In this document: in pieces, positions 51,001 through 54,000 of the stretch
Layout of the letters: each line of letters starts with the position of its first letter
Numbering within the stretch: the stretch's first letter is position 1
Assembly (NCBI GenBank): GCA_041640075.1
Contig: JBEQAY010000003.1
Coordinates: 1 to 57,186, forward strand
Source: Candidatus Nanohaloarchaea archaeon
GTDB lineage: Archaea; Nanohalarchaeota; Nanosalinia; Nanosalinales; Nanosalinaceae
Direction: 5' to 3'
DNA: 57,186 nucleotides
Position numbers: made by a program

Positions 51001-54000
51001 ATATATTACAGTAGATCTTTTTCCTGCATGCCTTCCTCTATCTCCAGAAGCGCCTCTACTTCGTCATCTTCGAGATTGTGGTTGTTGACTTCGTCGTCTC
51101 TCTGACCTGTGATTCTTCCAAGCAGATCTTCTGCCAGTTCTTCTTCCAAGTTCTCATAGTCTTTTTCCTCGTCGTGCTGGAACTCTCTGTTCGGGAATGC
51201 TCTGTAGCCGAACTGCATCTCCTGGTTCATCGGTGCCTTGTAGAACCAGCCTATTCTTATCGGCTGGAAACCGTGTTGTCCTCTCTGGCTTTCGAGTCCT
51301 GCGTCGACTGCTGCGGTCGCCTGAACCTCCATCCCGTCAAGTTCGTCCGCAACCTGTGCACCTGACCTGGCGGAAGTTGAGAGGGATCCGATATGCCAGT
51401 GATCCAGGTCGTAGTCTAGTTCATCCACGACAGAATCTATGGTCCCAGCAGTTTCCTGAAAACCGTCTACATTCCCCATTTCATAGTCCACAGGAAACTG
51501 TTCGTCCTGTACTCCTTCATCTCCGACGCCTCTGACAATCACATAGACAAAATTTTCGCCGAACGAATCTACAATATTCTCTGTTTCGTCGATTGGTGGT
51601 GCAACGGTTCTGACCTGGTACATGAAGTCCTCGCCGTAACCGTTAGAAGAAAGCTCATCTGCAACATCAACCATCTCAGATTTTACAGAACCCCTTTCGA
51701 CGTAAACTTCGAGCGGTTCAGGTCGCCGACTTTCCGAAATAGTTCTTTTCATAAGAAAAAATTCTAGGCGCTTGGGCCTTTGAAGTAGCCTTCTTCCTCG
51801 TTATCCGTGTTCTGGAAGACTTCCTCTTTATCCAGTGTCTCTCCTTCCCTGTCAGGTCTTGTCTCCGAGTCTACTTCAATCGGGTGGAAAGCTGGTTCAA
51901 CGTCTTCAGTATCTATTTCATCGAGTTTGTCGAACATCTCCAGAATGCTTTCAAACTCGTCTGCGAATTCCTCTGCCTCTTCTTCATCAATGTTTATTCT
52001 TGCGTTCTCTGCTACATCTTTGACTTGTTCGACATCAACCATGTAAACCAATATGTAGAGAAGATTTTTGTATCATCAAGGTATTGAATACTAGAGTTTA
52101 TCGAGGAATAGTGAAATTTCTCCAAACATTTATAAACTAGCTTTAGGAAAAGTTAGTTAGTAAGAATCACTTATTGTTTGACTCTGGTGGGACAGGTCAA
52201 ACGGACTTGCCTTCAACTCGGTGGGACGAGCTTGAGGCGAACATCGAACGTTGATCGTCGACTTCAAGGTGGGACTTGAGTCGAATCGTGAAACATTGGG
52301 AATTTGCATGTAAGTTGGGATAACTTCTAAGGTAGAGTTAGGTCTGCCGACTTAAAAAACTTTGGTAGACTCGATGCTATCGCCGAGGACGGTAAACCAA
52401 TAATGGAATCAATAATCAACGACTCCGAAAACACTGAAAACCCCAGTCAAAATCTGGACGATGTCAAGGACGCTAAAATCCTTGTAGTCGGATGTGGAGG
52501 AGCTGGTAACAACCAGATCACACGCATCCAGAACAAGGACGTTGAAGGCGCCGAGACAGTAGCAATAAACACTGATAAGCAACACCTGGAGATGTCCTCT
52601 GCTGACAGAAAAATCCTTGTCGGCCGGGACCTCACCAAAGGACTGGGAGCTGGCGGACAGCCAGAGAAAGGTGCACGAGCAGCAGAAGAAAACCGTGCAG
52701 AACTACGCAACCTGTTCAAAGACGCAGACATGGCTTTCCTCACCGCAGGAATGGGAGGAGGAACAGGAACAGGAGTCACACCAGTACTTGCAGAGATAGC
52801 AAAGAAAGAAGACTGCATCGTAATCGGAACAGTCACAATGCCTTTCGAAATCGAAGGCGCAAGAATGTCAAAAGCTGAAGAAGGACTATACGAACTAAGA
52901 CAACACGTCGACACTGCAATCGTAATCGAAAACGACAAACTACTCGACATCGCAGGCGACATGCCGCTAGACCAAGCATTCGGAGTAGCAGACGAACTAA
53001 TCACAACAATGATCAAAGGAATCACAGAAACAATCTCCAAGCCTTCACTGGTCAACCTGGACTACGCAGACGTACAGGCAATCATGAACAACGGCGGAGT
53101 CGCAGTAGTAGGATACGGAGAATCAGATACCAACAGTAAAGGAAAGGAAGCGATTCACGAAGCACTCTCAAATCCTCTGCTCGACGTCGAGTTTGAAGGC
53201 GCGAACGGAGCACTCCTGCACGTTGCTGGAGGTGAAGACCTCACACTGAACGAGATCAACGAGGTCGGACAGCACGTCAAGGAAAAGCTTGACAACCAGG
53301 CACAGACGATCTGGGGTGCCCGCGTAAGAGAGGACCTACAGGGCAAGATACAGGTCATCTCGATCATTACAGGAGTAAAATCACCTTACGTCCTCGGAGA
53401 ACTCGACGAGGAAGAAGAAACAGAAGTCACAGGAGACGTCAACGACCTGGGACTGGAACTAGTTGACTAAAAATCAGTTAGCAGGCCGGGTTTTTCCGGC
53501 GTATATTAATATTTCAGACGGAAGGGCTTCCGCACGCTTGGCTGCAAATCCCCCTCCCCTCCCCCCCTAAATTTGTTACCAGGCGAGTGGAGGTCCTCCG
53601 CTTAACCTTATTCATTTCTTTTTCACCTCAAGGAGAATTTTTCTTGGTTTTCGAAACTAGTAAAACATTGGATACAGTATTTCAAGCTGTGAGTCAAGGA
53701 TGGAGAGAAGAGGTTTCAACGCTGTAACTGCTCTGGCGCTTTTACTGGGCGTGGCGTCCGCAGCGATACTTTACCTGGATCCTGAGTCCATGAGGCTGAC
53801 AGCTGCTTTAACCGGTTTATCAGGTTTCCTGCTTCTTGGTTATGCACGTGATAGGTCGGTGTCTCTCCCAAATCTTAGCCAGGTGAAGGTCGAGTTGAAT
53901 CTGGCTGAGCAGATCTTTGAACTGCTTTTACTGGTGTCGCTGCTTGTCAGCGGACCTGTCCCAAAAGAAGTCGGTTTAGGTATACTAGCTGCTCTTCTGT

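Follow-up and report, generated by a model that had tools for sequence, protein, structure and literature searches.

Rows of stem-loops that expose A(N)GGA motifs in their loops characterise the bacterial CsrB/RsmZ-type sequestering RNAs and the leaders that are bound by CsrA. Iron-responsive elements (IREs), which are bound by IRP/aconitase, combine a CAGUGN hexaloop and, 5 bp beneath it, a C bulge, and binding in a 5' UTR blocks translation. The NCCA ends of tRNAs are recognised through pairing by the UGGN bulge of T-boxes, by RNase P L15 and by the 23S P-loop. The known cis-regulatory RNAs of archaea are very few and, to our knowledge, none of them is tied to cell division. According to two reports, cdrS, a gene for a ribbon-helix-helix (RHH) transcription factor, stands in front of ftsZ2 and is transcribed together with it in Halobacteria and most other archaea (PMC7439475, PMC8406309). 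The first of them describes cdrS-ftsZ2 synteny in all archaeal clades except DPANN, where CdrS was not detected (PMC7439475). No description of a hairpin array at ftsZ2 was found in the accessible parts of the nanohaloarchaea literature. Here, a structured RNA element on the plus strand upstream of ftsZ2 is described from a nanohaloarchaeon, and we regard it as very probable that this element is real and tied to ftsZ2.

The window that was analysed is a stretch of 57,186 nt (contig JBEQAY010000003.1, here C3). It contains an FtsZ gene at 52403..53470 on the plus strand (Pfam Tubulin and FtsZ_C; TIGR00065). NCBIfam models do not separate ftsZ1 from ftsZ2. In a comparison with the PDB, the product of this gene scored 351 bits against M. 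jannaschii 'FtsZ homolog 1' and the paralogue encoded on contig C4 scored 417 bits, and the lower score marks the gene in the window as the more divergent, FtsZ2-type copy. No RHH gene adjoins it; the genome contains five RHH_1 matches, and none of them is located on C3. The upstream neighbour of ftsZ2 is the divergently oriented gatC (51764..52042, minus strand; Pfam GatC, E 1.6e-18). The spacer between the two genes holds no conserved ORF, and its longest stop-free stretches span 41-82 codons. Two ORFs (50 aa on the minus and 33 aa on the plus strand) matched the two closest relatives only, at E values of ~1e-5 to 1e-6. This is the level expected from DNA identity and a coding reading was therefore rejected.

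The genome-wide survey's note had described a TATA box followed by a hairpin array upstream of ftsZ2, and this arrangement was borne out. The predicted promoter P1 (52122..52136, plus strand) consists of an A-rich, BRE-like CCAAACA and the TATA box TTTATAAA at 52129-52136, and four G-loop hairpins could be read directly. TATA-like boxes of this genome peak 28-32 nt upstream of start codons with A-rich sequence preceding them, and most of its genes look leaderless. The spacing of 30-32 nt between TATA start and ATG at these leaderless genes places the predicted start of the leader at 52159..52163. Hairpin 1 (52177..52201, the hairpin A orthologue) is formed by UUUGAC[U]CUG, the loop GUGGGA (52187-52192) and CAGGUCAAA; it was found in both the MFE and the centroid folds and has orthologues with different stems in relatives. 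It is followed by hairpin 2 (52209..52238, equivalent to the most conserved hairpin B), in which GCCUUCAACUCG and CGAG[C]UUGAGGC flank the loop GUGGGA (52221-52226), and by hairpin 3 (52259..52283, equivalent to hairpin C) with CGAC[U]UCAAG, a further GUGGGA loop (52269-52274) and CUUGAGUCG. As read from the sequence, the stems below these three hexaloops measure 9-10 bp if one bulge is allowed and 4-6 bp if contiguous. A fifth GGG (cauUGGGAAuuu, 52298..52300) has a stem of at most 2-3 bp, is essentially unpaired and was scored as a miss, while hairpin 4/5 in the hairpin D region (52312..52326) holds GGGAU between the 5-bp arms AAGUU and AACUU. All of these features are located on the plus strand, as is the conserved 3' block UUCUAAGGUAGA at 52322..52385, which matches the covariance model R1 with an E value of 8e-14. 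Within this block, the three segments a (52331-36), b (52341-50) and c (52362-71) are complementary to one another, and the A-rich box CUUAAAAAA occupies 52351-52359. A second box about 30 nt before the start codon had been claimed for the locus; this distance was wrong, as CUUAAAAAA spans the positions 44-52 nt before the ATG (52403). A putative Shine-Dalgarno-like GAGGA (52385..52389, plus strand) is positioned 13 nt ahead of this ATG. Tandem RTGAACRGT repeats were observed upstream of P1.

The layout, previously noted at 8 loci, extends to every ftsZ2 locus that was fetched across the phylum. All 63 loci, comprising 46 from the same family and 17 from four other families and thereby covering all five families of the phylum, carry a hairpin array upstream of an FtsZ2-type gene. 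Among the 17 loci from other families, 15 were recognised by their GGG-loop hairpins, one by three UUGGCG hexaloops and one by UUGGGC loops identified by eye. Each of the 46 family loci has 2-5 GGG-loop hairpins of at least 4 bp; the genomes are related, so that locus counts overstate independence. A TTTATAAA-type box, with GAAGA, AAACA or GAACA just before it, is present in 45 of these 46 loci. Divergent gatC lies upstream of ftsZ2 in 45 of the 46 as well; among the outgroup loci, the fetched piece reached the gatC position in 16, and 8 of these show this arrangement. The array occurs once per genome. When 5 complete genomes were searched with a generic UUGGGC-hairpin model, 13 matches were obtained (E<=10), and the ftsZ2 leader accounts for 11 of them. 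A regulon search of the window's own genome and of 5 complete genomes revealed no second array. The region upstream of ftsZ1 contains no array. On contig C13, two GGGA-loop hairpins were considered as a second array and rejected as a chance occurrence inside a long ORF. Of the 50 family genomes, 47 have a single strong match to model R1 (E <= 5.5e-7) next to ftsZ2, except that genome G022 among them has two, both adjoining ftsZ2 copies; 20 genomes of other families gave no strong match. A scan of both strands of 51500-53000 with Rfam 15 (E<=10) returned three weak matches, all inside gatC or further left and none in 52044-52402.

Several comparisons indicate that the hairpins exceed chance. 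In the window, four of the five GGG runs are located in loops of hairpins with at least 4 bp; 2000 dinucleotide shuffles contained 0.96 on average and 13 of them reached four or more. Both strands of the 1.96-Mb genome together contain 19 hairpins of at least 4 bp with a [GU][UGC]GGG[AC] loop, three of which cluster within 52183-52280, and three of the five hairpins with an exact GUGGGA loop belong to the ftsZ2 leader. Over the 46 family loci, 80% of the 217 leader GGG runs reside in hairpin loops, as compared to 19-20% of 1395 GGG runs in other parts of these loci. Pairing with the own arm at the inner five positions reached 98% in these loci versus 43% with permuted arms (maximum of 51% in 1000 permutations). 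The plus strand folds better than its shuffles at z = -2.8 and the minus strand at z = -3.9; because both strands do so, folding energy alone cannot choose between them.

The stems change while pairing is retained. The family loci supplied 176 hairpins, and the 159 of them with at least 5 bp have 62 distinct inner stems. RNAalifold predicted zero pairs for the full 455-column MAFFT alignment because indels misregistered the hairpins, and structure statistics were therefore derived from loop-anchored and per-hairpin alignments. The 11-pair helix of hairpin B (alignment A3) is 80.7% paired versus 71.3% after shuffling, a value reached in 0 of 500 shuffles; changes on both sides were found in 9 of the 11 pairs, with 73 compensatory cells versus 37.9 ± 5.0. 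For hairpin C (alignment A4), pairing amounts to 89.3% versus 73.8% shuffled in the hexaloop class and 95.7% versus 80.6% in a second class, and its closing pair is seen as AU, GC, CG and UA. The compensatory changes quoted in the survey's note (CUCG/CGAG vs CUUG/CAAG; UCAAG vs ACAAG) were recovered in locus L010. The closing pairs of 90 hexaloops are UG (31), GC (22), AU (16), CG (14), UA (5) and GU (2), without a single A·C or other mismatch. Internal wobbles number 7 G·U versus 2 A·C, while loosely extended stems (53 versus 44 and 12 versus 9) are uninformative on the strand. Given the 33 U·G or G·U closing pairs and the absence of A·C, the array RNA was assigned to the ftsZ2 strand. Covarying stems, this strand signal and the lack of a conserved ORF uphold the earlier view that a conserved RNA element of several hairpins, without coding function, is linked to ftsZ2.

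The loops, rather than the stems, are conserved. UUGGGC is the commonest loop of the 176 hairpins (80), followed by GGGC (29), CGGGCA (16) and GUGGGA (15), and a listing of all hairpins without motif bias also put UUGGGC first. As the loops kept across stem change are UUGGGC, GUGGGA, CGGGCA or UUGGCG, their shared core is YGG. The previously proposed UGGG motif thus holds in so far as G-rich loops are shared, but YGG(G/C) describes the core better, one family having UUGGCG. In one loop class the U residues are paired (CUUU-GGGC-AAAG), and one hairpin displays CGGGCA with no U. The array core (6870 nt with 1277 C) contains GGG 218 times, CC 66 times and CCC not once. The loops cannot be sequestered because the RNA is purged of CC and CCC. 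The array may be a multivalent binding platform, which would fit the exposed C-depleted loops, the missing CCC, the repeated sites and the single locus.

Sense-strand structure with compensatory changes between a predicted promoter and the start codon, as in a generic structured 5' leader, was found at this locus. Our preferred reading, to which we assign about an even chance of being correct, is a phylum-wide structured ftsZ2 leader that would start at P1 and control ftsZ2 through loops binding a trans factor. P1 would act as a strong upstream promoter and drive a structured 5' leader of ~225-245 nt on the ftsZ2 mRNA, with presumed read-through from the array into ftsZ2. The leader core would be a row of 3-5 hairpins, whose stems are free to change and whose apical loops are always YGG(G/C)N. 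A single trans-acting factor, most probably an RNA-binding protein that is oligomeric or has several domains, would dock on these loops as on a repeated site. How far the array is occupied would in turn determine the translation and/or stability of ftsZ2 via the adjacent 3' block, by way of alternative pairings around the A-rich box and then the Shine-Dalgarno sequence. The outcome would be post-transcriptional division control for CdrS-less symbionts.

Alternatively, transcription from P1 could yield a separate sRNA of ~170-190 nt that ends at the conserved UUCUA after the last hairpin and acts in trans as a CsrB/RsmZ-like sponge or decoy for a G-loop-binding protein, with ftsZ2 expressed from a proximal promoter P2. 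The A-rich box, which has conserved sequence upstream of it, could be this actual ftsZ2 promoter; the array would in that case belong to a separate transcript or to no more than an upstream isoform. Two tandem TATA-like boxes that are both conserved in essentially all loci agree with such an sRNA, and so does the conserved UUCUA. In most loci the A-rich box precedes the ATG by 37-52 nt, which fits a short Shine-Dalgarno-bearing leader given the spacing of 30-32 nt. Moreover, it is mainly at the level of primary sequence that the 3' block is conserved (mean column identity of 72%, with 10 columns invariant), as promoter or operator DNA would be. Its helices exceed shuffles by a modest 3-6 percentage points (b:c, 77.7% paired versus 71.8%, 0/500; a:b, 76.5%; c:d, 60.6%), and its G·U:A·C ratio, ~2:1, is close to the expectation from base composition. 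The best helix around the A-rich box came to 5.7 with real versus 4.9 with shuffled flanks, so that the real flanks are barely ahead. This statistic did not separate the two, and the b:c hairpin is a tentative one. The 3' block could be either P2 or an RNA hairpin loop. Nevertheless, no oligo-U terminator is apparent: between the last hairpin and the ATG no T>=4 run exists in the 46 family loci, and 10,320 nt of predicted leader contain one T>=5 run versus ~12.8 expected from composition (~13-fold depletion). In at least 12 loci the A-rich box is only 37-38 nt from the ATG, and a transcript started there would lose the conserved Shine-Dalgarno-like motif. The array is also always attached to ftsZ2 and single-copy. 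Other families have a clear GGAGG/GAGGUGA at the Shine-Dalgarno position. The depletion of U-tracts between P1 and the ATG speaks for a leader of ftsZ2 rather than a terminated sRNA. A start region with a Shine-Dalgarno motif, in a genome whose genes mostly look leaderless, leans in the same direction. The separate sRNA appears rather unlikely.

The remaining explanations are far less probable. An sRNA transcribed leftward from the A-rich box on the opposite strand would expose C-rich loops (GCCCAA/UCCCAC) that could pair with G-rich ribosome-binding sites and is reminiscent of the UCCC-loop sRNAs of Staphylococcus. The minus-strand box CAAAG-UUUUUUAAG is a good match to the TTTTTAA-type TATA of this genome with its A-rich upstream element, the stems are strand-symmetric and the minus strand folds well. 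However, the 33 U·G or G·U closing pairs of the plus strand become C·A mismatches on the minus strand, the reciprocal A·C is missing at this position, internal wobbles point the same way and the BRE of P1 is better oriented towards ftsZ2, which leaves this reading highly improbable. The same low standing is given to a DNA-level element (palindromic operators or cruciforms for a transcription factor, or an origin-like element) or a G-quadruplex built from the GGG tracts. Inverted repeats in a divergent promoter region and a strong G/C strand asymmetry are compatible with it, and K+ would stabilise quadruplexes in the hypersaline settings that these organisms inhabit. The RTGAACRGT repeats upstream of P1 suggest that DNA-binding factors probably act at this locus too. 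Operators, however, keep their sequence, whereas 62 stems flank a constant asymmetric centre here, and closing pairs specific to U·G would have no meaning in double-stranded DNA. Against a quadruplex speak one family that keeps hairpins with UUGGCG loops and zero GGG, and six of the 46 family loci, where no more than 2-3 GGG runs are present. No orc1/cdc6 was seen among the annotated neighbours. Slightly better placed, and still very improbable, is pairing of the YGGN loops with C-rich RNA strands instead of a protein, for example with the NCCA-3' ends of uncharged tRNAs. The invariance of the YGG core across families (UUGGGC, GUGGGA, CUGGGCA, UUGGCG) and the lack of intramolecular partners for the loops speak for it. 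Pairing over 3-4 bp would nevertheless be very weak without the extra tRNA contacts of T-boxes, and families do not agree in their fourth loop base (G versus C), which would imply different discriminator bases. The class with paired U residues and the CGGGCA hairpin do not conform either. Most of the 28 tRNAs predicted by ARAGORN in this genome seem to have A before CCA, with ends that are unreliably parsed, and neither a T-box nor another Rfam match was obtained. The specific version in which the array would be an archaeal sensor of uncharged tRNA, each YGGN loop capturing a free NCCA-3' end by the pairing known from the T-box bulge, RNase P L15 and the ribosomal P-loop, is less probable still. 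If true, ftsZ2 expression and hence division of the symbiont would be tied to the amino-acid supply from its host, and the array would be the first archaeal example of T-box-like logic, built on an architecture that is entirely different.

For the preferred leader, no protein emerged as a candidate for loop binding. Of the 30 family loci for which a downstream flank was fetched, 26 encode a NusA-like KH paralogue on that side of ftsZ2; in other families it is found on other contigs and this synteny is limited to the window's own family. As judged from gene order, a role as loop-binding partner does not appear to be supported. CsrA (PF02599) had no match in the genome, which is 89% complete, but was recovered in three bacterial genomes used as controls.

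If the array is a factor-binding leader, it would provide a concrete handle on division timing in genome-reduced symbiotic archaea, and would define an RNA family and a loop motif that are both new and could be used to fish for an archaeal RNA-binding protein. With CsrB/RsmZ it shares a row of stem-loops with varying stems that expose a short G-rich loop motif, and the multivalency suggests cooperative or titrating protein binding. It differs in that its loops are YGG(G/C), mostly UUGGGC, with GGA present only in the GUGGGA/UUGGGA genera; that it is fused to one target gene without an apparent oligo-U terminator or an Rfam match; and that it belongs to an archaeal lineage and a genome without a CsrA gene. 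Like IREs, the hairpins have conserved hexaloops on variable stems, a type that occurs singly or in UTR arrays, but the loops are not CAGUGN, the bulges are irregular (U bulges in only two hairpins of the window) and a different class of gene is concerned. An unpaired, exposed UGG(N) core is also common to the T-box, RNase P L15 and the 23S P-loop, in the T-box likewise within a 5' leader, yet Stem I, specifier and antiterminator are absent from the array and UGG is repeated 3-5 times in hexaloops. The cdrS-ftsZ2 operon resembles the locus in having a dedicated regulatory element directly upstream of ftsZ2, which would here be co-transcribed as well. In that operon the element is an RHH protein gene, whereas here it is a non-coding hairpin array, and a phylum-wide single-copy structured RNA occupies the exact position that cdrS holds in most archaea.

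The 360-nt spacer between gatC (51764-52042, minus strand; Pfam GatC) and the FtsZ gene (52403-53470, plus strand; Tubulin and FtsZ_C domains) was read directly, and the coordinates and hairpins that the genome-wide survey's note had reported upstream of ftsZ2 were found to be correct. On the plus strand, an A-rich element with a perfect TATA box (P1; CCAAACA-TTTATAAA, 52122-52136) is followed by hairpin 1 (UUUGAC[U]CUG-GUGGGA-CAGGUCAAA, 52177-52201), hairpin 2 (GCCUUCAACUCG-GUGGGA-CGAG[C]UUGAGGC, 52209-52238) and hairpin 3 (CGAC[U]UCAAG-GUGGGA-CUUGAGUCG, 52259-52283). Further along the same strand stand an essentially unpaired UUGGGA (GGG at 52298-52300), a hairpin AAGUU-GGGAU-AACUU (52312-52326), a conserved 3' block (52322-52385) and GAGGA (52385-52389), then the ATG. 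The 3' block contains a second box, CUUAAAAAA (52351-52359), which was measured to lie 44-52 nt from the start codon instead of the previously noted 30 nt or so. The product of the window gene scored 351 bits against M. jannaschii 'FtsZ homolog 1' and the second FtsZ, on contig C4, scored 417 bits; the window gene is classed by these scores as an FtsZ2-type paralogue. Upstream of ftsZ1 the TATA box is ordinary and a hairpin array is absent. Rfam gave no match within the gatC-ftsZ2 spacer, even at E<=10, and an ORF comparison found no conserved ORF there. On the gatC side, almost every locus keeps a minus-strand box some 30 nt ahead of the gatC start codon (52064-52075 in the window; minus strand UACAAAAA, plus strand TTTTTGTA). 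It probably serves as TATA box for leaderless transcription of gatC, which would then not need P1.

Hairpins were defined by simple contiguous-stem rules. In the window alone, four of the five GGG runs lie in loops of hairpins with at least four contiguous pairs, versus a mean of 0.96 in dinucleotide-preserving shuffles, 13 of 2000 of which reached four. Both strands of the 0.98-Mb assembly hold 19 hairpins of at least 4 bp with a [GU][UGC]GGG[AC] hexaloop, three of them within 52183-52280; five of the 19 have exactly GUGGGA as loop, three of these in the ftsZ2 spacer. A hairpin pair on contig C13 was considered as a second array and rejected, as it sits within a long ORF.

Among 50 searched genomes of the family Nanosalinaceae, 46 contained a full-length orthologue of the window FtsZ, and all 46 upstream regions were fetched; gatC is the divergent neighbour at 45 of them. 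Every locus follows a common plan, in which GAAGA, AAACA or GAACA precedes a TTTATAAA-type box, followed by some 40 nt that include a conserved GAAAAUGUUAG-like stretch, the hairpin row, the 3' block with UUUAAAAAGG, a GGNUGAU-type motif and the ATG. Because the genomes are related, counts over loci are not independent events. One locus has two GGG-loop hairpins, 15 have three, 24 have four and six have five. UUGGGC was the top-ranked loop (n=79) in an unbiased listing of all hairpins of at least 5 bp with loops of 4-9 nt. Of the GGG runs in the hairpin-row stretch, or leader core (n=217), 79.7% fall in loops of hairpins of at least 4 bp and 65.9% in those of at least 6 bp, versus 20.1% and 18.5%, and 1.8% and 5.7%, respectively, for runs outside the core of these loci, counted on each strand (n=675 and 720).

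The stems vary while their pairing is kept: 62 different inner 5-bp stems occur among the 159 hairpins with at least 5 bp (176 hairpins in total), and own-arm pairing at inner positions reaches 98.1%, versus 43.0% with 3' arms permuted (at most 51.0% in any of 1000 permutations). Their order along the leader identifies the orthologous hairpins across loci, and these were compared in loop-anchored alignments, which are biased towards structure. Hairpin B, corresponding to window hairpin 2 (ACUCG...CGAGU plus a variable outer stem), forms an 11-pair helix in alignment A3 with 80.7% paired cells versus 71.3 ± 1.3 after shuffling (reached by 0 of 500 shuffles) and 73 compensatory cells versus 37.9 ± 5.0; nine of its 11 pairs show changes on both sides, and slid controls were 22-40% paired. 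Hairpin C, corresponding to window hairpin 3, is 89.3% paired versus 73.8% shuffled in its hexaloop class and 95.7% versus 80.6% in the class with UU...AA extending the stem around GGGC.

Both strands of the spacer fold better than shuffles (z = -2.8 plus, z = -3.9 minus), so that energy alone does not decide the strand, and since stems are symmetric, the loop-closing pair was chosen as the strand test. For NNGGGN hexaloops whose next three pairs are Watson-Crick (n=90), the closing pairs were UG 31, GC 22, AU 16, CG 14, UA 5 and GU 2, with no others; single internal non-Watson-Crick positions were G·U in seven cases versus A·C in two. The U·G pairs arose repeatedly by a C-to-U change (UCGUCC.. 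to UCGUCU..; CACGC.. to CACGU..) and also by an inserted U...G pair (GUUCGUG-UUGGGC-CAC.. to GUUCGUG-U-UUGGGC-G-CAC..). In a minus-strand RNA they would be C·A mismatches; the functional RNA is therefore the plus strand, which is sense to ftsZ2. Across 6870 nt of leader core, GGG occurs 218 times, CCC never and CC 66 times against 1277 C, and the leader RNA appears purged of sequence able to pair with its own loops.

Promoters, start sites, read-through and binding at the ftsZ2 leader are all inferred here. In the genome studied, TATA-like boxes (TTTTTAA/TTTTAAA/TTTATAA) with an upstream A-rich element show a sharp peak 28-32 nt before the ATG of most long ORFs, which appear to give leaderless transcripts; a Shine-Dalgarno-bearing ftsZ2 start is therefore unusual. 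With this TATA spacing, transcription from P1 would start near 52159-52163, and the predicted leader has a median length of 224 nt (range 185-259) in the family loci; the A-rich element upstream of P1 agrees with plus orientation. The A-rich box of the 3' block may act as a further promoter, P2, from which transcription would begin some 20 nt ahead of the ATG; it is also a good promoter match when read on the minus strand. Unlike most genes of this genome, ftsZ2 has a Shine-Dalgarno motif in its start region, and in at least 12 loci the box lies just 37-38 nt from the ATG, so that a P2 transcript would be devoid of the motif. The archaeal termination signal is oligo-U. The 10,320 nt of predicted leader contain one run of at least five T versus about 12.8 expected from composition, and none of the 46 family loci has a run of at least four T after its last hairpin and before the ATG. 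The scarcity of T runs, the Shine-Dalgarno motif and the A-box distance tilt the balance towards read-through from P1 into ftsZ2.

Just upstream of P1, most genera carry two to three tandem copies of RTGAACRGT (e.g. GTGAACAGTCGTGAACAGT) about 10-11 nt apart. These repeats lie 20-120 nt upstream of the P1 box (loci L011, L014-L045 and others), sometimes with inverted TGTTCA copies. Among five complete genomes, the two-copy pattern (at most one mismatch) was found only in the ftsZ2 upstream region, in two of them, and nowhere else; it looks like a locus-specific transcription-factor site. The repeats are not evident at 52044-52128 of the window, whose genus has largely lost or changed them.

The 3' block comprises segments a (GGUAGA), b (UCUGCC-type), c (GGUAGA-type) and often d. 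Segment a resembles c, and since b can pair with each of them, the block could fold either as a:b plus c:d or as b:c around the A-box. Pairing of b:c in the gapless alignment A2 reaches 77.7% versus 71.8% shuffled (0/500), with 15 compensatory cells versus 7.4, while a:b is 76.5% and c:d 60.6% paired. The ratio of G·U to A·C is about 2:1, roughly the base-composition expectation, and in a best-helix test the real block was barely above shuffles. The block may be a proximal promoter with operator-like repeats, an RNA switch beside the ribosome-binding site, or both. In two loci, L015 and L033, segment d and the Shine-Dalgarno-like motif are separated by an insertion of 25-35 nt (..CACUUACAUCACAUGAUGAUCAAGAG..), which places the A-box 70-79 nt from the ATG; if it were a promoter, their leaders would be unusually long for it.

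R1, a covariance model built on the 3' block, matched strongly in 47 of 50 family genomes, in every case next to ftsZ2 and just once in each, apart from G022 with two matches, each beside an ftsZ2 copy. The three genomes lacking a match also lack an assembled ftsZ2 orthologue. Three far weaker matches lay away from ftsZ2 (E 6e-4 to 8e-3). R1 had no match in 20 genomes of the phylum's four other families, from 17 of which ftsZ2 upstream regions were fetched. In two of these families, all 15 loci contain two to five GGG-loop hairpins (UUGGGC, CUGGGCA, CGGGCA). They also share a TTTATAAA-type box upstream and an A-rich box, and their start is preceded by a clear GGAGG/GAGGUGA; 12 of the 15 are without CCC. 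A third family, represented by one genome, shows three UUGGCG-hexaloop hairpins on the ftsZ2 strand and none on the opposite one, and GGG is absent; in the one genome of the fourth, UUGGGC hairpins were read by eye. The element is thus phylum-wide, and its invariant loop core is YGG, not the UGGG of the survey. A generic model of any 7-bp stem with UUGGGC (R2), run over five complete genomes, gave 13 matches at E<=10, 11 of them in the ftsZ2 leader and the remaining two the weakest. Each genome has one array, and there is no regulon.

Several equivalent sites with a constant short loop motif, stems that matter only as stems, active avoidance of intramolecular loop partners and a single copy per genome fused to one gene are together what marks a multivalent platform on which a trans factor would dock. 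Formation of a quadruplex by the GGG tracts is disfavoured, as the UUGGCG family keeps its hairpins without any GGG and six family loci have just two to three GGG runs. A DNA operator made of the array is likewise disfavoured by the diversity of stems and by the U·G closing pairs, and pairing of YGGN loops with the NCCA-3' ends of tRNAs is a weakly founded reading. Considered as a possible partner of the docking platform, a NusA-like KH paralogue (54312-54818, plus strand; NF005013, 151 bits, below the cut-off of 175) is encoded two genes downstream of ftsZ2; it is syntenic in 26 of 30 family loci fetched with downstream flank. Of 70 genomes of the order, 62 encode this second NusA-like protein, the canonical archaeal NusA being encoded on contig C19. 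Its gene stands 1-2 kb downstream of ftsZ2 in the window's family only, and on other contigs in other families. Directly after ftsZ2, an ORF (53700-54248, plus strand) encodes a hydrophobic 182-aa protein found at 9 of 46 loci by tblastn, and after gatC another (51006-51752, minus strand) encodes a very acidic 248-aa protein found at 2 of 46; neither has a Pfam or NCBIfam match.

Platforms of such a kind are known from CsrA-binding RNAs and IRE arrays. The commonest loops of the ftsZ2 array contain neither the GGA of the former, which is confined to the genera with GUGGGA/UUGGGA loops, nor the CAGUGN of the latter and so place it outside both, and a profile search of the assembly (89% complete) found no CsrA gene. 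No description of such a hairpin-array RNA was found in the available parts of the literature on nanohaloarchaea. The array is rated as a new RNA family whose general kind is known: a putative regulatory RNA of repeated hairpins, new in its loop motif, lineage and target. Five RHH_1 matches were detected in the genome studied, none on the ftsZ2 contig. According to Darnell et al. 2020 (PMC7439475), cdrS, encoding a small RHH regulator, lies directly upstream of and is co-transcribed with ftsZ2 in all surveyed archaeal clades except DPANN, where CdrS was not detected. Compared with that arrangement, in which an RHH regulator gene stands upstream of ftsZ2, the Nanohalarchaeota carry a non-coding hairpin array at the same position.
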